From: a virus
Taxonomy: Duplodnaviria > Heunggongvirae > Uroviricota > Caudoviricetes
IMG/VR virus record: IMGVR_UViG_2645727715_000002
Length of the DNA: 36,924 nt
Direction: 5' to 3' (one strand)
A program made the position numbers and the translations under genes. This document shows positions 3,568 to 36,121 of this stretch, one piece after another. Every line of letters starts with the position of its first letter. Positions within the stretch are counted from its first letter, which is position 1. A model generated the notes under the pieces. It worked only from the letters and a program-made list of their open reading frames with translations. It was not told the DNA's origin and did no database searches.

Positions 3568-3700
3568 TCTTTGGGACTCCTGGCTGATTAAGTATGTCGA
3601 TAAGGCGTTTCCATCCGTCACGTAATTTACGGGTGATTCGTTCAAGTAAAGATTCGGAAGGGCAGCCAGCAACAGGCCACCCTGCAATGGCATATTGCAT
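3536..3700 (-). CDS. cIII: CIII, FtsH (HflB) inhibitor, 54 aa
   Basis: C-terminal 54 aa of ORF 3536..3772 ([54 protein letters not shown]) matches lambda CIII; ATG at 3698-3700. Confidence 0.85.
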   Translation of the reverse strand: MQYAIAGWPVAGCPSESLLERITRKLRDGWKRLIDILNQPGVPKNGSNTYGYPD

Positions 3701-3772
3701 GGTGTGCTCCTTATTTATACATAACGAAAAACGCCTCGAGTGAAGCGTTATTGGTATGCGGTAAAACCGCAC

Positions 3773-4188: not shown

Positions 4189-4324
4189 AAAGAAGATTTC
4201 CAATAATCAGAACAAGTCGGCTCCTGTTTAGTTACGAGCGACATTGCTCCGTGTATTCACTCGTTGGAATGAATACACAGTGCTGTGTTTATTCTGTTAT
4301 TTATGCCAAAAATAAAGGCCACTA

Positions 4325-4422
4325 TCAGGCAGCTTTGTTGTTCTGTTTACCAAGTTCTCTGGCAATCATTGCCGTCGTTCGTATTGCCCACACCATTGAT
4401 TCTTATCAATAGTCGCAGTCAT
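4325..4422 (-). pseudogene. ral: ral remnant with internal deletion and frameshift
   Basis: Minus strand from the ATG at 4420-4422 reads MTATIDKNQWCGQYERRQ then stop; a different frame reads IRTTAMIARELGKQNNKAA-stop, matching the lambda Ral C-terminus. Span is 98 nt versus about 201 nt recalled for lambda ral. Confidence 0.55.
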
Positions 4423-4492
4423 ACGGATAGTCCTGGTATTGTTCCATCACATCCTGAGGATGCTCTTCGAACTCTTCAAATTCTTCTTCCAT
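4406..4492 (-). CDS. Small acidic ORF (28 aa, MEEEFEEFEEHPQDVMEQYQDYPYDCDY) overlapping the ral start; possible lambda orf28 equivalent
   Basis: Uninterrupted 28-codon ORF on the minus strand ending 4406-4408; very short, coding status uncertain. Confidence 0.3.
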   Translation of the reverse strand: MEEEFEEFEEHPQDVMEQYQDYPYDCDY

Positions 4493-4616
4493 ATATCACC
4501 TTAAATAGTGGATTGCGGTAGTAAAGATTGTGCCTGTCTTTTAACCACATCAGGCTCGGTGGTTCTCGTGTACCCCTACAGCGAGAAATCGGATAAACTA
4601 TTACAACCCCTACAGT

Positions 4617-5171
4617 TTGATGAGTATAGAAATGGATCCACTCGTTATTCTCGGACGAGTGTTCAGTAATGAACCTCTGGAGAGAACCATGTATATGATC
4701 GTTATCTGGGTTGGACTTCTGCTTTTAAGCCCAGATAACTGGCCTGAATATGTTAATGAGAGAATCGGTATTCCTCATGTGTGGCATGTTTTCGTCTTTG
4801 CTCTTGCATTTTCGCTAGCAATTAATGTGCATCGATTATCAGCTATTGCCAGCGCCAGATATAAGCGATTTAAGCTAAGAAAACGCATTAAGATGCAAAA
4901 CGATAAAGTGCGATCAGTAATTCAAAACCTTACAGAAGAGCAATCTATGGTTTTGTGCGCAGCCCTTAATGAAGGCAGGAAGTATGTGGTTACATCAAAA
5001 CAATTCCCATACATTAGTGAGTTGATTGAGCTTGGTGTGTTGAACAAAACTTTTTCCCGATGGAACGGGAAGCATATATTATTCCCTATTGAGGATATTT
5101 ACTGGACTGAATTAGTTGCCAGCTATGATCCATATAATATTGAGATAAAGCCAAGGCCAATATCTAAGTAA
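4617..5171 (+). CDS. sieB: Superinfection exclusion protein B
   Basis: 184-aa translation with N-terminal hydrophobic segments matches recalled lambda SieB (…MYMIVIWVGLLLLSPDNWPEYVNERIGIPHVWHVFVFALAF…); converges with N. Confidence 0.8.
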   Translation: MMSIEMDPLVILGRVFSNEPLERTMYMIVIWVGLLLLSPDNWPEYVNERIGIPHVWHVFVFALAFSLAINVHRLSAIASARYKRFKLRKRIKMQNDKVRSVIQNLTEEQSMVLCAALNEGRKYVVTSKQFPYISELIELGVLNKTFSRWNGKHILFPIEDIYWTELVASYDPYNIEIKPRPISK

Positions 5172-5495
5172 CTAGGTAAGAGGAATCGATTTTCCCTTAA
5201 TTTTCTGGCGTCCACTGCATGTTATGCCGCGTTCGCCAGGCTTGCTGTACCATGTGCGCTGATTCTTGCGCTCAATACGTTGCAGGTTGCTTTCAATCTG
5301 TTTGTGGTATTCAGCCAGCACTGTAAGGTCTATCGGATTTAGTGCGCTTTCTACTCGTGATTTCGGTTTGCGATTCAGCGAGAGAATAGGGCGGTTAACT
5401 GGTTTTGCGCTTACCCCAACCAACAGGGGATTTGCTGCTTTCCATTGAGCCTGTTTCTCTGCGCGACGTTCGCGGCGGCGTGTTTGTGCATCCAT
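5172..5495 (-). CDS. N: Antitermination protein N (107 aa)
   Basis: Internal Met of ORF 5172..5585 gives MDAQTRRRERRAEKQAQWKAANPLLVGVSAKPVN..., matching lambda N including the arginine-rich motif; ATG at 5493-5495. Confidence 0.9.
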   Translation of the reverse strand: MDAQTRRRERRAEKQAQWKAANPLLVGVSAKPVNRPILSLNRKPKSRVESALNPIDLTVLAEYHKQIESNLQRIERKNQRTWYSKPGERGITCSGRQKIKGKSIPLT

Positions 5496-5605
5496 CTGGA
5501 TTCTCCTGTCAGTTAGCTTTGAGTAACGCGCCGTGATGCTTATCTCCACGGTTGCTGTCTTGCAGCTGCATTTCGCGCTACTCAAAGCTTTCTGCTTTGA
5601 ATGCT

Positions 5606-5636
5606 GCCCTTCTTCAGGGCTAAATTTTTAAGAGCC
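5606..5636 (-). promoter_or_regulatory. nutL (boxB hairpin plus boxA-like element)
   Basis: 5606-5620 gcccttcttcagggc is the reverse complement of the boxB consensus GCCCTGAAGAAGGGC; adjacent 5629-5636 is a boxA-like reverse complement (GGCTCTTA versus CGCTCTTA). Confidence 0.7.
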
Positions 5637-5676
5637 TCACCTTCAATGGTGGTTAGTGCGTCCTGCTGATGCGCTT

Positions 5677-5742
5677 AGTATCACCGCCAGTGGTATCTGT
5701 GTCAACACCGCCAGAGATAATTTACTCACCGCAGATGGTTAT
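5677..5742 (-). promoter_or_regulatory. pL promoter with OL1-OL2-OL3 operators
   Basis: OL1 tatcaccgccagtggta at 5679-5695 and OL2 at 5703-5719 match the lambda operators; -10 (rc GATACT) at 5677-5682 and -35 (rc TTGACA) at 5700-5705; OL3-like site at about 5726-5742. Confidence 0.75.
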
Positions 5743-5890
5743 CTGTATGTTTTTTTTATATAGTATTTATTTTTTGCAGGGTTGTGTGGATTGGGAAGGT
5801 GATCGAGAGATCTGAATTGCGATGTTTAGCGAGTTGTATCTATTAATTTTAAAATAAATACAATTGGTTATGTGTTTTTGGGGGCGTTAG

Positions 5891-5918
5891 GCAAAGAAAA
5901 CCCGGCGCAGATGCCGGG
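5891..5918 (-). terminator. Rho-independent terminator ending the cI / 301-aa gene leftward operon
   Basis: Stem cccggc (5901-5906) / gccggg (5913-5918) with a 6-nt loop; on the minus strand it is followed by TTTTCTTT (rc of 5891-5900), 13 nt past the gene stop. Confidence 0.6.
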
Positions 5919-5930
5919 TTGTGGTGGAGA

Positions 5931-6836
5931 TCAATGCTTATTTGGGAGTGCTGGTTTTTTTATCGACTCTAATAGCTCGGAGGCATTACTAATCTTTTTG
6001 TTCCCAAGGTAATTTGGCAGTTTTTCCATTGCGTAATTATCGTGTAGCCATTTTCTGAACACGCCAAGTGCCTCAATAGGATAAATCCAAGCTGTTATAT
6101 GCTTATTTGCAGCTGACTGCCTGTAATTTTCGGGGAATAGATGTGGGTACTGCACCCTTTCCCCGAATTTCTCAGATAGCCCATTAGCTGTCCAATACTT
6201 TCCCCAGTGAATTCCAACACTTCCATCCAAAGATGTGGTGTCATCCATTGGGAATCCTCCTCCGATCAGGTTCATGGCAATGTCAGCTATCTCTCTGAAT
6301 ACTGCAAAATGAGTTGTCGGTATCTGATCGTTTAGCTTAATCCTTGCTCTATAGTTCTCGAATGAGATATCTATTGAAGCATTTGGGTTGTAATTTGACT
6401 TTTCATAAATCATTCGCTTAAGCGTGTACTCAGCCAAGCGAACAAAATTACCTATTGCGACTGACCTATCAAAATTGGTGGCATCTAGAGCGTAGTAACG
6501 GAGGATAGCCATACAAACATAGTCAGGATAAGCATGTGTTTCAACGTTTGAGCTATTTATGACGCGGGTATACAGTCGGTCAACGTTGTTAAATCCTTTC
6601 TCAGCTAAGTATGCAGCTACTTTTTGTCCTCTTGGCTTATTTTTTTCAGTCTCCCAGTTAGATGTAAACATTCGAAGAGGTGCTTCATCTATGCCACATA
6701 ATTTGGCTAAACCGTAAAGAGTTAGATAAGGGGTTCCATCATTAAGCACCCCCATAGGAATGCCATCAGCAACAACTTCTACTGTAGGTACTAAGGGTAA
6801 TTCACCCTGCGATCCGCCCATCGGTAAATTTAGCAT
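5931..6836 (-). CDS. Unknown 301-aa protein in the rexAB position downstream of cI; candidate anti-phage defence or exclusion gene, possibly BstA-like (unverified)
   Basis: Uninterrupted 301-codon ORF with ATG at 6834-6836 and AAGGA upstream; AT-rich relative to the flanking lambda genes; same strand as cI and followed by a terminator; no similarity to RexA/RexB that I can recognise. Confidence 0.8.
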   Translation of the reverse strand: MLNLPMGGSQGELPLVPTVEVVADGIPMGVLNDGTPYLTLYGLAKLCGIDEAPLRMFTSNWETEKNKPRGQKVAAYLAEKGFNNVDRLYTRVINSSNVETHAYPDYVCMAILRYYALDATNFDRSVAIGNFVRLAEYTLKRMIYEKSNYNPNASIDISFENYRARIKLNDQIPTTHFAVFREIADIAMNLIGGGFPMDDTTSLDGSVGIHWGKYWTANGLSEKFGERVQYPHLFPENYRQSAANKHITAWIYPIEALGVFRKWLHDNYAMEKLPNYLGNKKISNASELLESIKKPALPNKH

Positions 6837-6911
6837 ATGTTATTGATTTCCTTATGTTATGCGCTGAGATCGACTATTCGCCTATATGGCGATTTCTATT
6901 TCTAATAAACA

Positions 6912-6925
6912 ATCGCATATGCGAT
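6912..6925. repeat. Perfect 14-bp palindrome atcgcatatgcgat in the cI / unknown-gene intergenic region
   Basis: Sequence equals its own reverse complement; lies 76 nt upstream of the unknown gene start and 30 nt downstream of the cI stop. Confidence 0.6.
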
Positions 6926-6954
6926 CTTTTTGCGACAACAAGGTTGTATTGTGG

Positions 6955-7671
<717 letters not shown>

Positions 7672-11854: not shown

Positions 11855-12041
11855 CCCATCTCAATCCCTTCAATACCTGAAAGGAAGCATAGAGCGGGCT
11901 TCAATGTGCACAGAGTGGATTCTATCTAGGTTTAGCGCATACAGAAGATTGCCGGTAAAGGGCATGCCAAGCAAGTCGATGCTGCATATGCAAAAGAATG
12001 CGCGCTGGAAGGTATGGCGAGAACACAGGTTATCTGGCTGA
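11847..12041 (+). CDS. NinF-like small protein (N-terminus [10 protein letters not shown] conserved, remainder divergent)
   Basis: The first 10 residues match recalled lambda NinF; the remainder does not. Confidence 0.45.
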
Positions 12042-12060
12042 AAGAGGGGGTTATTAAGGC

Positions 12061-12423
12061 GTGAATACCTACAGCATCACATTACCCTGGCCTCCGAGCA
12101 ATAATCGCTATTACCGCCATAATCGCGGGCGCACGCACGTCAGCGCAGAGGGGCAGGCATACCGCGATAACGTCGCCCGAATCATTAAAAACGCAATGCT
12201 GGATATCGGCCTGACTATGCCTGTGAAAATCCGCATTGAGTGCCACATGCCGGATCGCCGTCGCCGTGACCTGGATAATCTGCAAAAAGCCGCTTTTGAC
12301 GCACTCACTAAAGCAGGTTTCTGGCTGGATGATGCTCAGGTCGTTGATTACCGCGTTGTGAAGATGCCTGTTACCAAAGGTGGGAGGCTGGAACTGACCA
12401 TCACCGAAATGGGGAATGAATGA
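12061..12423 (+). CDS. rusA: RusA Holliday-junction resolvase, 120 aa
   Basis: [47 protein letters not shown]... matches E. coli prophage (DLP12-type) RusA. Confidence 0.9.
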
Positions 12424-12560
12424 TGTTTGAGTTTAATATGGCAGAACTTCTTCGCCACCGCTGGGGGCGTCTGCGCTTATATCGTTTCCCCGGTTCTGTT
12501 TTGACCGATTACCGAATACTGAAGAATTACGCCAAAACACTGACAGGAGCAGGAGTATGA
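12420..12560 (+). CDS. ylcG: YlcG-like small protein, 46 aa
   Basis: ATG at 12420 overlapping the rusA stop; translation [46 protein letters not shown]; DLP12-type gene order rusA-ylcG-Q. Confidence 0.6.
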
Positions 12561-12645
12561 AGTCAGAGATAACAATCAACTAATACTGTTTTGTTGATTT
12601 TTGCTTGTAATTGGCGTTCTGGTCTGATTTTTGTGGAGTAAGTTG

Positions 12646-13029
12646 ATGCGTGATATTCAGATGGTTCTTGAGCGTTGGGGAGCGTGGGCGGCTAATAATC
12701 ATGAAGATGTGACCTGGTCGTCCATTGCCGCCGGTTTTAAGGGATTAATTACTTCAAAAGTAAAATCTCGCCCGCAATGTTGTGACGATGACGCGATGAT
12801 CATTTGCGGGTGCATGGCCCGTCTGAAAAAGAACAACAGCGATTTGCACGATTTATTAGTAGATTATTATGTAGTCGGTATGACATTCATGTCACTGGCA
12901 GGTAAGCATTGCTGCTCTGATGGTTATATCGGGAAAAGGTTACAGAAGGCTGAGGGTATAATTGAAGGGATGTTAATGGCATTAGATATCCGGTTAGAGA
13001 TGGATATCGTTGTTAATAACTCTAATTAA
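12646..13029 (+). CDS. Q: Late antiterminator Q (phage 82 / DLP12 quuD type), 127 aa
   Basis: [26 protein letters not shown]... with a Cys-rich zinc-binding segment; GGAG upstream of the ATG at 12646; not lambda-type Q. Confidence 0.8.
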
Positions 13030-13046
13030 TATGCCAGTTGTTTACT

Positions 13047-13080
13047 AAAAATTATTAAAAATGGGGCGTTGAGACGCCCC
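13047..13080 (-). terminator. Candidate rho-independent terminator for the porin transcript
   Basis: Stem ggggcg (13063-13068) / cgcccc (13075-13080); on the minus strand it is followed by a T-rich tract (A-rich 13047-13062 on the plus strand). Confidence 0.45.
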
Positions 13081-13218
13081 CAAAAATAAAGGGTAATATA
13101 TAACAGAAGGTTTATATAGTTAGAAGCAAGGTTGTGCTTCTAAAGGAAGTGGCTTGAGGGAGCCACTTATATGTTGGGGAGGCAACGCCTCCCGCAACAT
13201 ATCTTTTTCGTAATCAGA

Positions 13219-14316
13219 TTAGAACTGGTAAACCAGACCTACAGCAACGATGTCATCAGTGCTTACACCGAGTGCTTTAGTGAAGTCATTTTTGTCAAGC
13301 AGGTTGATTTTGTAATCAACGAAAGTAGACATATTTTTGTTGAAGTAATAGGTTGCACCTACATCAACATATTTGACTAAGTCCTGATCGCCCCATACTC
13401 CAAGATCCTTACCTTTAGATTGCAGGTAAGCAACGGACGGACGCAGACCGAAATCGAACTGATATTGTGCAACAGCTTCGAAGTTTTGGGCTTTATTAGC
13501 AACGAAGTGATCAGCAAATACAGTCATATTCTGGGTTTCAGAATAGGTAGTGGCCAGGTAAATGTTGTTAGCGTCATATTTCAGACCTGCGGCCCAAACT
13601 TCTGCATTTTTACCGGAAGCAAATACTTCAGGAAGAACTTTCCCTGCATTAACTTGAGTGTCGGTACGATCAGATTTCGCATAAGTTGCACCGATACCGA
13701 ATCCTTCGTATTCATAGGTAGCAGAGAAACCGAAGCCATCACCGTTACCTTCAGTGTAGTTATCGAAATCGCTACGATCGTTTTTGCCTTGGTACTGAGC
13801 AGCAAAATTCAGACCATCAACCAGACCAAAGAAGTCGTTGTTACGATAGGTTGCAACACCAGTTGCACGTTGAGTCATGAACACGTCGGTTTGAGTCCAA
13901 GTGTCACCACCGAATTCTGGCAGGACGTCAGTCCACGCACCGATGTCGTATGCTACACCGTAGTTACGGCCGTAATCGATGGAGCCGTAGTCACCGAATT
14001 TCAGGCCAGCGAAGGCAAGACGGGTTTTATCTTTGGAGGAACCTTGAGATTCAGCGCGGTTGCCTTTGAATTCATATTCCCACTGACCGAAACCAGTCAG
14101 TTGATCGTTGATTTGGGTTTCACCTTTGAAGCCAAGACGGGCATAAGTAGTATCACCATCATCTGCATCATTAGAGGAGAAGTAGTGCTTAGCATTAACT
14201 TTCCCGTACAGATCCAGCTTGTTACTGTCTTTATTATAAATTTCAGCTGCCTGAGCAGACATCGCCATCAGTACTGATGCAGCTACAGCAGAAATTGCCA
14301 CTGTTAATTTTTTCAT
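13219..14316 (-). CDS. OmpC/NmpC/Lc-family general porin (phage-borne lysogenic-conversion porin), 365 aa
   Basis: Signal peptide [23 protein letters not shown], 16-strand porin hallmarks and C-terminal ...VGLVYQF; placed between Q and the lysis genes as nmpC is in DLP12 and lc in PA-2. Confidence 0.9.
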
Positions 14317-14746
14317 CGTGAGCCCTTTTTTGAACTATTATTAAAAAATGATGTCACTGCGCGATAAATATTCATCTAATCAATGTGATTATTTCAAGAT
14401 GTAAGTTTTGGTTTCTCGTTTGATTTGTGAAGTAGATCTCTATTTTTATCTGAACTTTTTTTTCTATCGAATCCTATTCATGGCTCTTGGCTGAATAAAA
14501 AATAAATCTGTTAGCCAATTTATATTAACGGCTGTTATTTATAAGTGCTCTATAATTTGAAAGTTCAATTTAAACCGGCTAAAAATAACACTGGAAATTA
14601 TTTGTTGGTTATTTGTTGAGATTTGCTTATGTATTTGTAGTGGTGTTTTCAATACTCGGTAGCATTCTCGCAAATATCATTTAGTGGTTTACGTACGTAA
14701 AAAATTGGTTATGCTGTTAAGAGTGGTTACTTCGTCACACAGCTTA

Positions 14747-14770
14747 AACCCGCCGTCGAGCGGGTTTTTC
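14747..14770 (+). terminator. Rho-independent terminator upstream of the lysis cassette (candidate tR'-equivalent)
   Basis: Stem cccgc (14749-14753) / gcggg (14760-14764) with a 6-nt loop, followed by TTTTT (14765-14769). Confidence 0.55.
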
Positions 14771-14890
14771 CATTTTTTGAGTCTCGATATTAGCTGATAA
14801 CCCAATACCTGAGTTATTCACTGACTCCGAGTCTGTTACGTTTCGTAGTATTCCCTCAATTTACACCCGCTTTGTCTGCGAGGTGGGGTT

Positions 14891-15106
14891 ATGAAATCCA
14901 TGGATAAGTTAACAACGGGTGTCGCCTATGGCACCTCAGCAGGTAGTGCCGGGTACTGGTTTTTACAGCTGCTAGATAAAGTCACGCCCTCACAGTGGGC
15001 GGCAATTGGAGTGCTGGGTAGCCTGGTATTTGGCCTGCTGACGTACCTGACAAACCTTTATTTCAAGATTAAAGAAGATAAGCGCAAGGCTGCGAGAGGT
15101 GGATAA
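14891..15106 (+). CDS. S: Holin/antiholin, phage-21-type pinholin (71 aa, dual-start motif MKSM)
   Basis: [71 protein letters not shown]; two TM segments; resembles S21. Confidence 0.85.
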
Positions 15107-15603
15107 TGCCTCCATCATTACGAAAAGCTGTTGCTGCTGCTATTGGTGGCGGGGCTATTGCTATAGCATCTGTATTAATCACTGGCCCAAGTGGTAACGA
15201 TGGTCTGGAAGGTGTGAGACATAATCCTTACAAAGACATAGTTGGTGTATGGACTGTATGTCACGGGCATACAGGAAAAGACATCATTCCCGGTAAAACG
15301 TATACCGAAGCAGAGTGCAAAGCCCTCCTGAATAAAGACCTTGCCACTGTCGCCAGACAAATTAACCCGTACATCAAAGTCGATATACCGGAAACAACGC
15401 GCGGCGCTCTTTACTCGTTCGTCTACAACGTGGGTGCTGGCAATTTCAGAACATCGACGCTTCTTCGCAAAATAAACCAGGGTGATATTAAAGGCGCATG
15501 TGATCAGCTACGTCGCTGGACATATGCTGGCGGTAAGCAATGGAAAGGTCTCATGACTCGTCGTGAGATTGAGCGTGAAATCTGTTTGTGGGGTCAGCAA
15601 TGA
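15106..15603 (+). CDS. R: SAR endolysin (T4-lysozyme-like muramidase with N-terminal signal-anchor-release domain), phage-21 R type
   Basis: N-terminal Gly/Ala-rich weakly hydrophobic segment ([20 protein letters not shown]) followed by a lysozyme domain; ATGA overlap with the S stop. Confidence 0.85.
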
Positions 15604-16061
15604 ACAGAGTAACCGCGATTATCTCCGCTCTGGTTATCTGCATCATCGTCGGCCTGTCATGGGCTGTTAATCATTACCGTGATAACGCCATTACCTACAA
15701 AGCCCAGCGCGACAAAAATGCCAGAGAACTGAAGCTGGCGAACGCGGCAATTACTGACATGCAGATGCGTCAGCGTGATGTTGCTGCGCTCGATGCAAAA
15801 TACACGAAGGAGTTAGCTGATGCGAAAGCTGAAAATGATGCTCTGCGTGATGATGTTGCCGCTGGTCGTCGTCGGTTGCACATCAAAGCAGTCTGTCAGT
15901 CAGTGCGTGAAGCCACCACCGCCTCCGGCGTGGATAATGCAGCCTCCCCCCGACTGGCAGACACCGCTGAACGGGATTATTTCACCCTCAGAGAGAGGCT
16001 GATTACTATGCAAAAACAACTGGAAGGAACCCAGAAGTATATTAATGAGCAGTGCAGATAG
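15600..16061 (+). CDS. Rz: Rz spanin (inner-membrane subunit)
   Basis: [45 protein letters not shown]... matches lambda Rz; ATG 15600 overlaps the R stop. Confidence 0.85.
15820..16002 (+). CDS. Rz1: Rz1 spanin (outer-membrane lipoprotein) embedded in Rz in the +1 frame
   Basis: 60-aa ORF with lipobox LVVVGC and a proline-rich segment ([16 protein letters not shown]), as in lambda Rz1. Confidence 0.75.
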
Positions 16062-16092
16062 AGCTGCCCATATCTATGGGCAACTCATGCAA

Positions 16093-16377
16093 TTATTGTG
16101 AGCAATACACACGCGCTTCCAGCGGAGTATAAATGCCTAAAGTAATAAAACCGAGAAATCCATTTACGAATGTTTGCTGGGTTTCTGTTTTAACAACATT
16201 TTCTGCGCCGCCACAAATTTTGGCTGCATCAACAGTTTTCTCCTGTCCAATTCCCGAAACGAAGAAATGATGGGTGATGGTTTCCTTTGGTGTTACTGCT
16301 GTCGGTTTGTTTCCAACAGTAAACGTCTGTTGAGCACATCCTGTAATAAGCATTGCCAGAGCGGCAGAAAACAACAT
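16093..16377 (-). CDS. bor: Bor lipoprotein (serum-resistance homolog)
   Basis: MLFSAALAMLITGCAQQTFTVGNKPTAVTPKETITHHFFVSGIGQEK... with lipobox LITGC; a further upstream ATG (16383-16385) is out of frame by one base. Confidence 0.8.
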   Translation of the reverse strand: MLFSAALAMLITGCAQQTFTVGNKPTAVTPKETITHHFFVSGIGQEKTVDAAKICGGAENVVKTETQQTFVNGFLGFITLGIYTPLEARVYCSQ

Positions 16378-16745
16378 TTTTTCATCTTATTATCCTGCAT
16401 TGTTAAAAACGGCAGAATCCTATGTGACAACAATTAAACGATAGTTAAATGGATTGATGAAAATTAAAACTATATAGGTGGATGCTCAGCCTATTGGAGG
16501 AGGGGGGGGCACTCAGAATCCTGTGGAATGAAATAAACCGCTCTTTCTGTCCATTACCCTTTTAGCTGCGCTGTATCGTCGCCGTATTCCCGCATTAACC
16601 ATGACCGTAGCCCGACGGGGAATTCCTTCTGCGTGAGTGTGCGGGAATAATCAAAACGATGCACACCGGGTTTTACTGTGCTGACAGACGCAGGGTTACC
16701 CTCATAGTCGCTTTTCCGGTGCGATGGTGGAAGAAACCGGGATGT

Positions 16746-17849: not shown

Positions 17850-17875
<26 letters not shown>
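17330..17875 (+). CDS. nu1: Terminase small subunit Nu1, 181 aa
   Basis: MEVNKKQLADIFGASIRTIQNWQEQGMPVLRGGGKGNEVLYDSAAVI... matches lambda Nu1. Confidence 0.95.
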
Positions 17876-21557
<3,682 letters not shown>

Positions 21558-21577
<20 letters not shown>

Positions 21578-23220: not shown

Positions 23221-23269
23221 CCTTACCCTTCATCACTAAAGGCCGCCTGTGCAGCTATTTACGATTTTT

Positions 23270-24295
23270 ATGTCGATGTACACAACCGCCCAGCTGCTGG
23301 CGGCAAATGAGAAGAAATTTAAGTTTGATCCGCTGTTTCTGCGTCTCTTTTTCCGTGAGAGCTATCCCTTCACCACGGAGAAAGTCTATCTCTCACAAAT
23401 TCCGGGACTGGTAAACATGGCGCTGTACGTTTCGCCGATTGTTTCCGGTGAGGTTATCCGCTCCCGTGGCGGCTCCACCTCTGAATTTACACCGGGATAT
23501 GTCAAGCCGAAGCATGAGGTGAATCCGCAGATGACCCTGCGTCGCCTGCCGGATGAAGATCCGCAGAATCTGGCGGACCCGGCTTACCGCCGCCGTCGCA
23601 TCATCATGCAGAACATGCGAGACGAAGAGCTGGCCATTGCTCAGGTCGAAGAGATGCAGGCAGTTTCTGCTGTGCTTAAGGGCAAATACACCATGACCGG
23701 TGAAGCCTTCGATCCGGTTGAGGTGGATATGGGCCGCAGTGCGGCGAACAACATCACACAGTCCGGTGGTACGGAGTGGAGCAAGCGTGACAAGTCCACG
23801 TATGACCCGACCGACGATATCGAAGCCTATGCGCTGAACGCCAGCGGAGTGGTGAATATCATCGTGTTTGATCCGAAAGGCTGGGCGCTGTTCCGTTCCT
23901 TCAAAGCCGTCAAGGAGAAGCTGGATACCCGTCGCGGCTCTAATTCCGAGCTGGAGACAGCGGTAAAAGACCTGGGCGAAGCGGTGTCCTATAAGGGGAT
24001 GTATGGCGATACGGCGATCGTCGTGTATTCCGGACAGTACGTGGAAAACGACGTCAAAAAGAACTTCCTTCCGGACAACACGATGGTGCTGGGGAACACT
24101 CAGGCACGCGGTCTGCGCACCTATGGCTGCATTCAGGATGCGGACGCACAGCGCGAAGGTATTAACGCCTCTGCCCGCTACCCGAAAAACTGGGTGACCA
24201 CCGGCGATCCGGCGCGTGAGTTCACCATGATTCAGTCAGCACCGCTGATGCTGCTGGCTGACCCTGATGCGTTCGTGTCCGTACAACTGGCGTAA
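23270..24295 (+). CDS. E: Major capsid protein E, 341 aa
   Basis: [41 protein letters not shown]… matches lambda gpE. Confidence 0.95.
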
Positions 24296-27681: not shown

Positions 27682-30235
27682 ACCGGTAGGCGATCTGGTC
27701 GTTGATTTGAGTCTGGATGCGGCCAGATTTGACGAGCAGATGGCCAGAGTCAGGCGTCATTTTTCCGGTACGGAAAGTGATGCGAAAAAAAACAGCGGCA
27801 GTCGTTGAACAGTCGATGAACCGGCAGGCGCTGGCTGCACAGAAAGCGGGAATTTCCGTCGGGCAGTATAAAGCCGCCATGCGTATGCTGCCTGCGCAGT
27901 TCACTGACGTGGCCACGCAGCTTGCAGGCGGGCAAAGTCCGTGGCTGATCCTGCTGCAACAGGGGGGTCAGGTGAAGGACTCCTTCGGCGGGATGATCCC
28001 CATGTTCCGGGGGCTTGCCGGTGCGATCACCCTGCCGATGGTGGGGGCCACCTCGCTGGCGGTGGCGACCGGTGCGCTGGCGTATGCCTGGTATCAGGGC
28101 AACTCAACCCTGTCCGATTTCAACAAAACGCTGGTCCTTTCCGGCAATCAGGCCGGGCTGACGGCAGATCGTATGCTGGTCCTGTCCAGAGCCGGGCAGG
28201 CGGCAGGGCTGACGTTTAACCAGACCAGCGAGTCACTCAGCGCACTGGTTAAGGCGGGGGTAAGCGGTGAGGCTCAGATTGCGTCCATCAGCCAGAGTGT
28301 GGCGCGTTTCTCCTCTGCATCCGGCGTGGAGGTGGACAAGGTCGCTGAAGCCTTCGGGAAGCTGACCACTGACCGACGTCGGGCGTGACAGCGATGGCGC
28401 GCCAGTTCCATAACGTGACGGCGGAGCAGATTGCGTATGTTGCTCAGTTGCAGCGTTCCGGCGAAGAAGCCGGGGCATTGCAGGCGGCGAACGAGGCCGC
28501 GACGAAAGGGTTTGATGACCAGACCCGCCGCCTGAAAGAGAACATGGGCACGCTGGAAACCTGGGCAGACAGGACAGCACGGGCATTCAAATCCATGTGG
28601 GATGCGGTGCTGGATATTGGTCGTCCTGATACCGCGCAGGAGATGCTGATTAAGGCAGAGGCCGCGTTTAAGAAAGCGGACGATATCTGGAATCTGCGCA
28701 AGGATGATTATTTTGTTAACGATGAAGCGCGGGCGCGTTACTGGGATGATCGTGAAAAGGCCCGTCTTGCGCTTGAAGCCGCCCGAAAGAAGGCTGAGCA
28801 GCAGAGTCAACAGGACAAAAATGCGCAGCAGCAGAGCGATACCGAAGCGTCACGGCTGAAATATACCGAAGAGGCGCAGAAGGCTTACGAACGGCTGCAG
28901 ACGCCGCTGGAGAAATATACCGCCCGTCAGGAAGAACTGAACAAGGCACTGAAAGACGGGAAAATCCTGCAGGCGGATTACAACACGCTGATGGCGGCGG
29001 CGAAAAAGGATTATGAAGCGACGCTGAAAAAGCCGAAACAGTCCGGCGTGAAGGTGTCTGCGGGCGATCGTCAGGAAGACAGTGCTCATGCTGCCCTGCT
29101 GACGCTTCAGGCAGAACTCCGGACGCTGGAGAAGCATGCCGGAGCAAATGAGAAAATCAGCCAGCAGCGCCGGGATTTGTGGAAGGCGGAGAGTCAGTTC
29201 GCGGTACTGGAGGAGGCGGCGCAACGTCGCCAGCTGTCTGCACAGGAGAAATCCCTGCTGGCGCATAAAGATGAGACGCTGGAGTACAAACGCCAGCTGG
29301 CTGCACTTGGCGACAAGGTTACGTATCAGGAGCGCCTGAACGCGCTGGCGCAGCAGGCGGATAAATTCGCACAGCAGCAACGGGCAAAACGGGCCGCCAT
29401 TGATGCGAAAAGCCGGGGGCTGACTGACCGGCAGGCAGAACGGGAAGCCACGGAACAGCGCCTGAAGGAACAGTATGGCGATAATCCGCTGGCGCTGAAT
29501 AACGTCATGTCAGAGCAGAAAAAGACCTGGGCGGCTGAAGACCAGCTTCGCGGGAGCTGGATGGCAGGCCTGAAGTCCGGCTGGAGTGAGTGGGAAGAGA
29601 GCGCCACGGACAGTATGTCGCAGGTTAAAAGTGCAGCCACGCAGACCTTTGATGGTATTGCACAGAATATGGCGGCGATGCTGACCGGCAGTGAGCAGAA
29701 CTGGCGCAGCTTCACCCGTTCCGTGCTGTCCATGATGACAGAAATTCTGCTTAAGCAGGCAATGGTGGGGATTGTCGGGAGTATCGGCAGCGCCATTGGC
29801 GGGGCTGTTGGTGGCGGCGCATCCGCGTCAGGCGGTACAGCCATTCAGGCCGCTGCGGCGAAATTCCATTTTGCAACCGGAGGATTTACGGGAACCGGCG
29901 GCAAATATGAGCCAGCGGGGATTGTTCACCGTGGTGAATTTGTCTTCACGAAGGAGGCAACCAGCCGGATTGGCGTGGGGACTCTTTACCGGCTGATGCG
30001 CGGCTATGCCACCGGCGGTTATGTCGGTACACCGGGCAGCATGGCAGACAGCCGGTCGCAGGCGTCCGGGACGTTTGAGCAGAATAACCATGTGGTGATT
30101 AACAACGACGGCACGAACGGGCAGATAGGTCCGGCTGCTCTGAAGGCGGTGTATGACATGGCCCGCAAGGGTGCCCGTGATGAAATTCAGACACAGATGC
30201 GTGATGGTGGCCTGTTCTCCGGAGGTGGACGATGA
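27674..30235 (+). pseudogene. H: Tail tape-measure protein H, interrupted by a +1 (A8 run) and a -1 (CC) frameshift (or sequencing errors)
   Basis: ATG 27674 gives MAEPVGDLVVDLSLDAARFDEQMARVRRHFSGTESDAKK then a stop; the lambda-matching sequence continues in frame 0 (27717..28388) and again in frame 2 (28385..30235); junctions at A8 run 27785-27792 and CC 28373-28374. Confidence 0.85.

Positions 30236-32634: not shown

Positions 32635-36121
<3,487 letters not shown>

Follow-up and report, generated by a model that had tools for sequence, protein, structure and literature searches.

The window analyzed here is the whole 36,924-nucleotide stretch of prophage DNA, and the locus of interest is a porin gene on its minus strand that is located between quuD and essD, both on the plus strand. 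The genes and transcript features of the locus are the following:

12646..13029, plus strand: quuD, a Q-family late antiterminator gene (127 aa), from a Pfam Phage_antitermQ match (E=4e-53) and the RefSeq annotation of a 99.7% identical locus
13052..13218, minus strand: ipeX element, the 167-nt 3' UTR of the porin mRNA, with inferred 5' and 3' ends
13063-13080 and 13057-13061, minus strand: hairpin and U run of an intrinsic terminator, from a terminator scan
13171-13380, plus strand: antisense ORF, 'ORF1' of the PA-2 record
13219..14316, minus strand: nmpC/lc porin coding sequence, ATG start, 365 codons, the end coordinate including the stop codon
13277..13280, minus strand: CTAA, the IS5 target site, single and unoccupied (nt 1037-1040 of the coding sequence)
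13420-14277, plus strand: antisense ORF, 285 aa
14248-14316, minus strand: signal peptide, codons 1-23, leaving a mature porin of 342 residues
14891-15106, plus strand: essD holin (Pfam Phage_holin_2_1)
15106-15603, plus strand: rrrD lysozyme (Pfam Phage_lysozyme)
15588-16061 as listed, plus strand: rzpD (Rz) spanin with embedded rzoD (Pfam Phage_lysis)

The porin gene is an uninterrupted open reading frame with exactly these coordinates in the ORF list. Its product matches the Pfam Porin_1 family (PF00267) end to end (profile positions 1-337 of 337, E=4.7e-157, 523.1 bits against a cutoff of 23.7) and passes the NCBIfam OmpC subfamily model (529.8 bits, cutoff 484), while scoring below the cutoffs of the equivalog models for PhoE (NF007544, 502.3 vs 599) and OmpF (NF007446, 474.5 vs 583). 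Because the OmpC subfamily model alone is passed, the profile scores indicate that this porin is neither PhoE nor OmpF, and that the name 'OmpC' fits it solely in a broad sense. The 23-residue N-terminal signal sequence ends in the Ala-X-Ala cleavage motif of a Sec signal peptide, with AEIYNKD as the mature N-terminus; in the solved structures of OmpC, OmpF and PhoE, the mature chains begin at the residue that aligns with residue 24, and the PA-2 record annotates an identical 69-nt signal peptide. Residues 24-365 match solved OmpC chains with E=4e-137, and in the alignment with OmpC, OmpF and PhoE both the L3 constriction-loop motif PEFGGD (P133-D138) and the final residue (F365) of the C-terminal YQF are invariant. 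The three E. coli K-12 porins share Porin_1 over the full length, these motifs and the mature N-terminus with the window porin, at 66%, 62% and 65% identity for OmpC, OmpF and PhoE, respectively, but the window porin is prophage-borne, its surface loops are different, as shown by indels there in the alignment, and NmpC regulation is Crp-dependent rather than classical osmoregulation. Homology thus predicts a trimeric 16-strand general-diffusion porin of the OmpC/OmpF/PhoE class. A chromosomal ompC paralogue was ruled out by the phage genes on both flanks, and we take the two antisense ORFs as shadows of the porin reading frame.

The closest described relative is Lc (protein 2, J02580.1) of phage PA-2, with 98.9-99% amino acid identity over 365 residues and an identical signal peptide, the two proteins differing by four replacements (R106H, Q156G, A158T and V161F). 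The sequence-only reading had called this gene a complete OmpC/NmpC/Lc-type porin with a signal peptide, and the reading frame, the full-length family match, the signal peptide and the approximately 99% identity to Lc all bear this out. The observed gene is real but ordinary: the Lc/NmpC porin gene, of which this is an intact copy, has long been known, having first been sequenced in 1986, and is found at this position between Q and the lysis genes in many lambda-like prophages of E. coli.

The same reading held that nmpC of the K-12 prophage DLP12 is inactivated by IS5 and that the window copy appears intact, as is indeed the case. In K-12, IS5B is inserted after codon 346 with the CTAA duplicated around it, the junctions reading ...CACTAA, IS5, CTAAAGCAC..., whereas the window copy carries the single CTAA, and its alignment with K-12 is continuous across the insertion point, with IS5 absent. 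Over the first 1040 nt, the coding sequences are 99.8% identical. The nmpC::IS5 copy of phage 434B, in a region acquired from K-12, is 100% identical at the amino acid level over residues 1-347. Of the 5426 complete E. coli genomes, 4047 contain related DNA. An intact nmpC copy is not unusual: the uninterrupted IS5 site of the window's allele is present in at least 760 complete genomes and the K-12 IS5 junction in only 297, with all eight of the junction matches listed coming from K-12 or laboratory-derived strains.

The neighborhood likewise conforms to the earlier reading, which had placed the porin between Q and the lysis cassette on the opposite strand. The quuD product shows weak similarity to the solved Q21, and the genes of the lysis cassette (14891..16061) were named from Pfam matches and the annotation of the E166 and K-12 loci. 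The order quuD, porin (minus strand), essD/rrrD/rzpD recurs in K-12, E166, Nissle 1917, O104:H4 and many isolated phages, and in PA-2 the porin also adjoins lysis genes on the opposite strand, although the DNA from the late terminator to the holin differs there by a 16-nt indel (84.7% identity). The likeness to DLP12 (qsr') extends over rusA, ylcG, quuD, nmpC (minus strand), essD, rrrD, rzpD, bor, ylcI and nohD, with 99.6% DNA identity for 12000-13285 (rusA, ylcG, quuD, ipeX and the 3' end of nmpC) and 96.6% for 13277-16439 with IS5 absent in the window. The window prophage itself is not DLP12, a possibility ruled out by the restriction of the K-12 match to rusA through nohD, by the lambda-type early, head and tail genes, and by the location of a relative beside ybhC rather than at the DLP12 site. 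It carries lambda-type exo/bet/gam, cIII, O, P and ren along with a complete set of lambda-like head and tail genes, and its identity to Chlobot, an isolated phage, is 97-99%; its nearest chromosomal relative adjoins ybhC, and its own insertion site falls beyond the ends of the window. A tRNA scan of the window found none.

Upstream of the porin gene, the DNA is A/T-rich, with a G+C content of 30.7% in 14317-14740 and 29.7% in 14317-14686, compared to 44.2% in the coding sequence and 51.7% in the whole window. The following control signals were located in or next to this region:

14317..14515, minus strand: PnmpC promoter region including the 5' UTR, equal to the −199..−1 stretch, 97.8% identical to K-12
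14332..14366, plus strand: candidate sigma-E-type lysis promoter (GAACTA, 16 nt, TCACT; +1 at ~14365), inferred
14423..14443, minus strand: PnmpC-proximal CRP-binding-like site ATAGAGATCTACTTCACAAAT, identical to misc_binding CRP 1363-1383 of J02580.1
14687..14772, plus strand: probable late promoter cassette of the pR'-leader-tR' type, from conservation and consensus
14688-14693, plus strand: putative late promoter −35, TTTACG
14710-14715, plus strand: putative late promoter −10, TATGCT, after a 16-nt spacer
~14720-14722, plus strand: predicted +1 of the late promoter
14722..14742, minus strand: second CRP-like site CTGTGTGACGAAGTAACCACT, identical to PA-2 feature 1067-1087
14746-14767, plus strand: hairpin of the late terminator, followed by a U run, from a terminator scan

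In K-12, deletion of −199..−1 abolishes nmpC promoter function, and 5' RACE of the nmpC transcript placed the transcription start at a 'G' (PMC11677980). On the minus strand of the window, TATTTA at 14365-14370 is the likely −10, and the reported 'G', read from the sequence, would correspond to 14357, 14360 or 14362. The same study describes Crp as an activator of PnmpC and names OmpR, IHF and MprA as its repressors, and the regulators named there do not include H-NS (PMC11677980). A consensus promoter scan of 12900-15000 at a 9-of-12 threshold returned a single weak plus-strand match (14557-14586) and reported neither PnmpC nor the proposed late promoter, both being sub-threshold or activator-dependent. 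The suggestion that the A/T-rich 14317-14740 is the control region of the porin was correct insofar as the region holds PnmpC and OmpR is reported to act on this promoter, as a repressor, but the region also carries plus-strand signals of the lysis cassette. Because the late promoter cassette probably lies beyond the porin, we regard the A/T-rich region as a shared divergent control region, in which the second CRP-like site and the late promoter leader overlap on opposite strands. The candidate sigma-E-type promoter lies back to back with the nmpC 5' UTR and overlaps it. A DLP12 lysis-operon reporter, which is said to span −121 to +650, has a start primer that maps to 14244-14263 and so gives a +1 at ~14365; because this published fragment implies a start near that position, there may be more than one plus-strand promoter here.

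Downstream of the stop codon, the porin transcript would continue into ipeX, a 167-nt RNA that is produced within the porin transcript and controls OmpC (PMC12197685; also PMC3333887). The window element folds into four local hairpins and the intrinsic terminator, and is very strongly structured (MFE −62.9 kcal/mol, z=−10.1). The UTR is 99.5% identical to those of K-12 and PA-2 (189/189 nt aligned); compared to the ev207 allele, it is 93% identical, against only 85% for the coding sequence, so that the UTR is more conserved than the gene it follows, and it accompanies the porin gene in 2510 genomes. Substitutions are depleted in the stems (5 of 90 columns vs 18 of 75, p=0.0012). Compensatory base-pair changes were found in none of the 49 pairs of the fold among eight copies, because these copies are all at least 90% identical, so that the informative test was the weaker one of where substitutions fall. 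In an Rfam scan of the whole window at gathering thresholds, the sole match was the lambda cIII thermoregulator (3655-3713), with none for ipeX or the late leader. Overexpressed ipeX reportedly lowers OmpF as well.

These features fit a lysogenic-conversion module of the lc/nmpC type known from PA-2 and DLP12 ('qsr'), carried by a lambda-like prophage, and we consider this reading, including expression, ipeX, the porin swap and the placement of the module, to be highly probable. Under this model, the porin would be expressed from the repressed prophage by its own promoter in the A/T-rich upstream DNA, would rise through Crp activation when carbon is limiting and be held down by OmpR, IHF and MprA, and would be exported via its 23-residue Sec signal peptide. 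The mRNA would run 167 nt beyond the stop codon into the structured ipeX, ending at the intrinsic terminator, and ipeX would lower OmpC post-transcriptionally. The lysogen would thus trade OmpC for the phage porin, keeping its permeability and losing a common phage receptor. The module would lie between Q and its cognate late promoter and terminator, facing away from them, such that late transcription does not cross it. The identity and intactness of the gene, its context, its conservation and the RNA structure come from the present analysis, and the expression, the regulators and the effect on OmpC are taken from the literature.

The earlier reading had proposed lysogenic conversion via the porin, which appears right in substance, but missed the 3' UTR, the published route to lower OmpC (PMC12197685). 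Its claim that a prophage porin alters the outer-membrane profile of the lysogen agrees with data on strain NCM3722, where nmpC is intact: NmpC makes up about 2% of the proteome and rises under carbon limitation, being, along with OmpF, the major porin in that condition, while the OmpC level is more than 10-fold below that of MG1655 (PMC8144880). We infer an exclusion benefit for the window prophage by extension. Self-exclusion through the loss of OmpC is at most a tentative suggestion for this prophage; its J protein most resembles those of phages Chlobot and PhiR70_1 at the C-terminus, where it is 88% identical to phage 21, and the data examined name no receptor for the closest relatives.

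The same observations can be read to mean that the main selected function of the porin is nutrient uptake or a changed permeability under carbon limitation, in effect a foraging aid, with phage exclusion being incidental. The membership of NmpC in the carbon-limitation sector, as one of the two major porins there (PMC8144880), speaks for such a role and agrees with the reported activation by Crp and the conservation of the CRP sites. However, the gene is accompanied across genomes by a structured UTR that acts against OmpC, which suggests that one porin is exchanged for another and not merely added, and nmpC expression has been reported to raise sensitivity to some colicins and phages. We consider foraging as the main function somewhat unlikely; the two functions are not mutually exclusive.

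A different possibility is that the gene, albeit intact, is silent in this host and leaves the lysogen unaffected in ordinary conditions. In E. coli B, nmpC is reportedly one of 'two quiescent porin genes', as worded in the title of Prilipov et al. 1998, as cited, and going by this status, an intact nmpC is not always expressed. Silence would also be in line with the poor −35 of PnmpC, its dependence on Crp, the reported repression by OmpR, IHF and MprA (PMC11677980) and the report of nmpC mRNA as a RybB target. Nevertheless, PnmpC of K-12 has enough activity to act as the chief source of transcription of the IS5 transposase, the intact gene yields an abundant protein in NCM3722 (PMC8144880), and the window promoter region is nearly identical to that of K-12, with both CRP sites unchanged. 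A silent gene therefore seems quite improbable to us.

The placement of the module depends on where late transcription starts, and we infer the position of the late promoter from comparisons among phages. The block 14687-14772 is 100% identical to K-12 and 98.9% identical to PA-2 and ev207, and the leader motif TAAGAGTGGTTAC is invariant among the compared copies. The Stx1 phage BP-4795 has this block overlapping the 3' terminus of Q and flanked by unrelated DNA; in PhiR55_1, it is displaced and follows a different antisense ORF (148 aa), and here too neither flank is related. The promoter-leader-terminator block thus accompanies this Q family through three distinct gene arrangements. In the literature, the leader motif was met only in a deletion primer for an Stx2d phage, just after the Q gene of that phage. 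Phage 1H12, in which a related Q is followed by an antisense Blc lipocalin gene, was not counted as support, the promoter block not being found there. Taken together, these comparisons suggest that 14687-14772 is probably the Q-dependent late promoter and terminator, which would place the porin gene after Q but ahead of the late promoter. Because their start lies beyond the porin gene, late transcripts would not cross it, and only read-through of the early rightward operon via Q would run antisense to the porin. The earlier description of the porin as antisense to late transcription accordingly stands with regard to the strand but not with regard to the late promoter and terminator, which the comparative evidence places beyond the gene. 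The opposite arrangement, with the late promoter directly after Q (13030-13218) and Q-modified polymerase passing antisense through the porin to the lysis genes, follows the layout of lambda and Stx phages, where the late promoter is immediately after Q (PMC7547250), and would meet no stop at the minus-strand terminator 13063-13080, which lacks a T run on the plus strand, but appears very unlikely given that the Q-abutting sequence of BP-4795 (hexamers, invariant leader and terminator) is found here at 14687-14772, that homology to BP-4795 Q ends at 12978 with nothing shared in 13030-14686, that in PhiR55_1 the block is likewise displaced, there by another antisense ORF, and that the promoter scan reported no plus-strand promoter-like site in 13030-13218.

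With the late promoter placed beyond the porin, the interval separating Q from its cognate late promoter and terminator could be an 'insulated cargo slot' that recurs across this Q family, in which backward genes with their own promoters escape Q-dependent late transcription. We put this forward tentatively, as a rather doubtful generalization, the examples being the porin with ipeX here and the 148-aa antisense ORF in PhiR55_1. Early transcription that is antiterminated by N and continues past Q would still run antisense across genes in such a slot, so that prophage induction could shut off the porin/ipeX swap via transcriptional interference. In envelope stress, PnmpC would be opposed in a similar way by the overlapping lysis promoter of sigma-E type around 14365. 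Stx phages have the same Q family (77% nt identity), the same promoter-leader-terminator block and cargo inserted beside it, but the Stx cargo lies downstream of tR', in sense orientation and dependent on Q, whereas the window cargo lies upstream of the late promoter, in the opposite orientation and with its own promoter. The nmpC gene of P7, a P1-like temperate phage, encodes a porin of the same subfamily (80-82% aa identity) that also has a signal peptide, but its flanks are non-homologous, the gene being located between odaA and ssb, and it shares neither an ipeX-like 3' UTR nor the promoter region.

Little in this account is new, given that the gene, its position, the K-12 IS5 allele, the regulators, the 3' UTR effector and the outer-membrane proteome effect have all been published. 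Strains with the intact allele, many natural isolates among them, should differ from K-12 in their porin set and have lower OmpC, and this is relevant to the choice of OmpC-dependent phages and to the interpretation of antibiotic permeability. Annotation pipelines leave ipeX and the late promoter cassette unlabelled, so the logic of the module is easily overlooked. The labels of the porin gene itself vary among pipelines ('porin', 'OmpC', 'OmpD' or 'hypothetical protein'), and many phage records name this type of porin OmpD, after a Salmonella porin.

The reading frame of 365 codons that runs on the minus strand from an ATG at 14316 to 13219 is, as the sequence-only reading had claimed, a complete porin gene with a signal peptide. 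Its product covers the whole of the Pfam Porin_1 profile (E=4.7e-157) and passes the NCBI OmpC-subfamily model (529.8 bits vs a cutoff of 484). The PhoE and OmpF equivalog cutoffs of the NCBI models are not reached, and by these cutoffs the protein is neither PhoE nor OmpF; the names OmpC and OmpD fit it only in the loose sense of annotation pipelines. Identity to K-12 OmpC, OmpF and PhoE is 66%, 62% and 65%, respectively, and in the alignment with these proteins neither the PEFGGD eyelet motif nor the terminal Phe varies. The N-terminus has 23 residues of the usual signal-peptide layout followed by AEIYNK, with residue 24 aligned to the first residue of the mature OmpC, OmpK36, PhoE and OmpF chains in crystal structures; the 69-nt signal peptide annotated in the PA-2 GenBank record is the same. 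The gene lies, as proposed, between Q and the lysis cassette, with rusA, ylcG and the antiterminator gene quuD on the plus strand on its upstream side and the holin gene essD, the lysozyme gene rrrD and the spanin genes, likewise on the plus strand, on its downstream side. An open reading frame of 285 aa antisense to it, at 13420-14277 (+), and one of 69 aa at 13171-13380 (+), the latter being 'ORF1' of the 1986 PA-2 record, are more likely shadows cast by the porin frame than genes.

The porin is 98.9% identical to Lc of PA-2 (J02580.1) and 99-100% identical to the porins of a dozen recently isolated lambdoid phages; a second allele class, common to many other phages, shows 90-92% identity. 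In the cryptic K-12 prophage DLP12, the two sides of IS5B in nmpC align with window positions 12000-13285 and 13277-16439, and the CTAA found on both sides of IS5 is single here, at 13277-13280. The window gene is therefore an uninterrupted nmpC/lc, which bears out the reading of an intact counterpart to the K-12 copy. Of 5426 complete E. coli genomes, 4047 contain DNA related to 13000-14900. By a 120-nt probe that spans the IS5 insertion point, the site is uninterrupted in at least 760 genomes, and the K-12 nmpC::IS5 junction occurs in 297, the matches listed for it being laboratory K-12 derivatives. All the testable defining features of the Lc/NmpC module, namely protein identity, position, orientation, ipeX and CRP sites, are present, and the window copy departs in nothing from this already known kind. 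Expression and pore function, documented for near-identical copies, would by likeness extend to this one. The anticipated effect on the outer-membrane profile is on record for another carrier, the K-12 strain NCM3722 with intact nmpC, where NmpC makes up about 2% of the proteome, NmpC and OmpF are the major porins under carbon limitation, and OmpC is more than 10-fold lower than in MG1655, whose nmpC is broken (PMC8144880); the profiling suggested earlier has thus in effect already been done.

The porin coding sequence has none of the homopolymer length changes found in the window. Relative to both Chlobot, an isolated phage, and the prophage of E. coli E166, in which they are absent, the window carries single-base length changes in A/T runs (for example, at 18266, 18348, 20233, 27792, 28375 and 34993) that split into two reading frames each of the genes for the large terminase (17850-19777), portal (19977-21577), tape-measure protein (27717-30235) and tail tip protein J (32638-36121). 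Likewise, the Bor/Iss-family lipoprotein gene (Pfam Lambda_Bor; 16093-16377, minus strand), which bears the name 'iss' (increased serum survival) in the E166 locus of 99.7% identity, has 94 codons instead of 97: a T run at 16377 lacks 1 nt, and the codons lost are N-terminal, where the presumed lipoprotein signal peptide begins. Long-read assembly errors typically look like this, although real decay of the prophage is a conceivable alternative. Upstream of the porin, three runs differ in length from E166 (at 14326, 14456 and 14497: T6 vs T7 just before the ribosome-binding site, T8 vs T6, and A6 vs A5), which could be assembly noise or altered promoter spacing.

The sequence-only reading missed the 3' UTR element ipeX. 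The spacer between the porin stop codon and quuD spans 189 nt and ends, on the porin strand, with a G+C-rich hairpin (13063-13080) and a T run. Castillo-Keller and colleagues reportedly found in 2006 that the ipeX sequence also lies 3' of lc in PA-2, and that lc transcription lowers OmpC. According to a 2025 review, the DLP12 element ipeX is 167 nt long, is transcribed from the porin promoter within the porin mRNA, and controls OmpC through a mechanism not based on simple complementarity (PMC12197685). In the window, the stretch shares 99.5% identity with each of K-12 and PA-2, and in the ev207 allele it retains 93% identity vs only 85% for the coding sequence; it is found in 2510 complete genomes. 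The predicted fold, four local hairpins and the terminator, has an energy of -62.9 kcal/mol, whereas shuffled sequences give -30.4 (z=-10.1). An alignment of eight copies shows substitutions in 5 of 90 stem columns vs 18 of 75 unpaired columns (p=0.0012), none of these changes being compensatory. The module thus combines a porin gene with an RNA element lowering host OmpC, so that a porin swap, in which ipeX RNA would lower OmpC while the phage porin is made, can be explained without protein-protein competition.

More than 100 Stx phages match the window at the Q gene and, just 0.5 kb away, at a short segment that ends at 14769. This segment (window 14687-14769) starts 13 nt before the Q stop codon in the Stx1 phage BP-4795, and in PhiR55_1 it follows another minus-strand reading frame located after Q. 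No other part of the locus is as well conserved as the aligned block (98.9-100% identity). It begins exactly with GTTTAC and stops at the T run behind a hairpin, and the DNA on either side is unrelated between phages. The block contains:

Features of the conserved block
Within the block, plus strand: -35 TTTACG, 16-nt spacer and -10 TATGCT, read from the sequence
Within the block, plus strand: invariant leader TAAGAGTGGTTAC, from the alignment
14746-14767, plus strand: terminator, from a terminator scan

The Q proteins of lambda, 21 and 82 are known to act only at their own late promoters. Because the block accompanies one Q family in three architectures, it is most simply read as the putative pR'-qut-tR' cassette of that family. 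The porin module (~13006-14686) would then have Q on one side and the late promoter on the other and point away from the latter, so that late transcripts would never cross the porin and only early rightward transcription reading through Q would do so. Of the proposed antisense relation to late transcription, the opposite strand holds and the crossing probably does not.

As noted earlier, the porin start is preceded by A/T-rich DNA (30% G+C vs 52% for the window). A 2024 study of K-12 located the nmpC promoter in the 199 bp preceding the start codon, mapped the transcription start 'G' by 5' RACE, and listed Crp as activating the promoter and OmpR, IHF and MprA as repressing it; it names RyhB as the small RNA exerting post-transcriptional control (PMC11677980), and elsewhere the small RNA targeting nmpC mRNA is named RybB (PMC3333887). 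The 199-bp region is 97.8% identical between the window and K-12, and both CRP sites annotated in PA-2 are identical here (14423-14443 and 14722-14742). A DLP12 lysis-operon reporter fragment said to cover -121 to +650 has its start primer at 14244-14263, which puts the lysis +1 near 14365, where a sigma-E-like GAACTA-16-TCACT is readable on the plus strand, a second plus-strand signal implied by the literature. Because these lysis signals lie in porin upstream DNA, the region is a shared, divergent control region: it does hold the porin promoter, but its role is not the porin's alone.

By comparison among phages, the gap between Q and the late promoter may be an insulated slot for backward-facing cargo, a mildly new angle, though perhaps already self-evident to specialists. 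Directly after a related Q, phage 1H12 carries a backward-facing gene for a Blc-type outer-membrane lipocalin (L017 3035-3559) and PhiR55_1 one for a 148-aa hypothetical protein (L005 1493-1939), which suggests that this position is a recurrent site for antisense cargo.

The window's prophage is not DLP12: it is a lambda-like genome 97-99% identical to Chlobot, its closest chromosomal relative, that of E166, adjoins ybhC, and the DLP12/PA-2 type is limited to the stretch from rusA to nohD. The lambda cIII thermoregulator RNA element is matched perfectly (Rfam RF01804; 3655-3713, minus strand, 88.5 bits), which confirms a lambda-type early-left region. In E166, a P4-like element with integrase, primase, Icd-like and SSB genes (L001 26274-33899, window ~23515) lies inside the major capsid gene, which is uninterrupted here (23249-24295). 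The immunity-proximal region 4293-6957 is unlike that of E166, only short patches aligning, and contains reading frames at 4617-5171 (+), 5172-5585 (-) and 5931-6836 (-, 301 aa), next to a cI-like repressor gene (6955-7668, minus strand).
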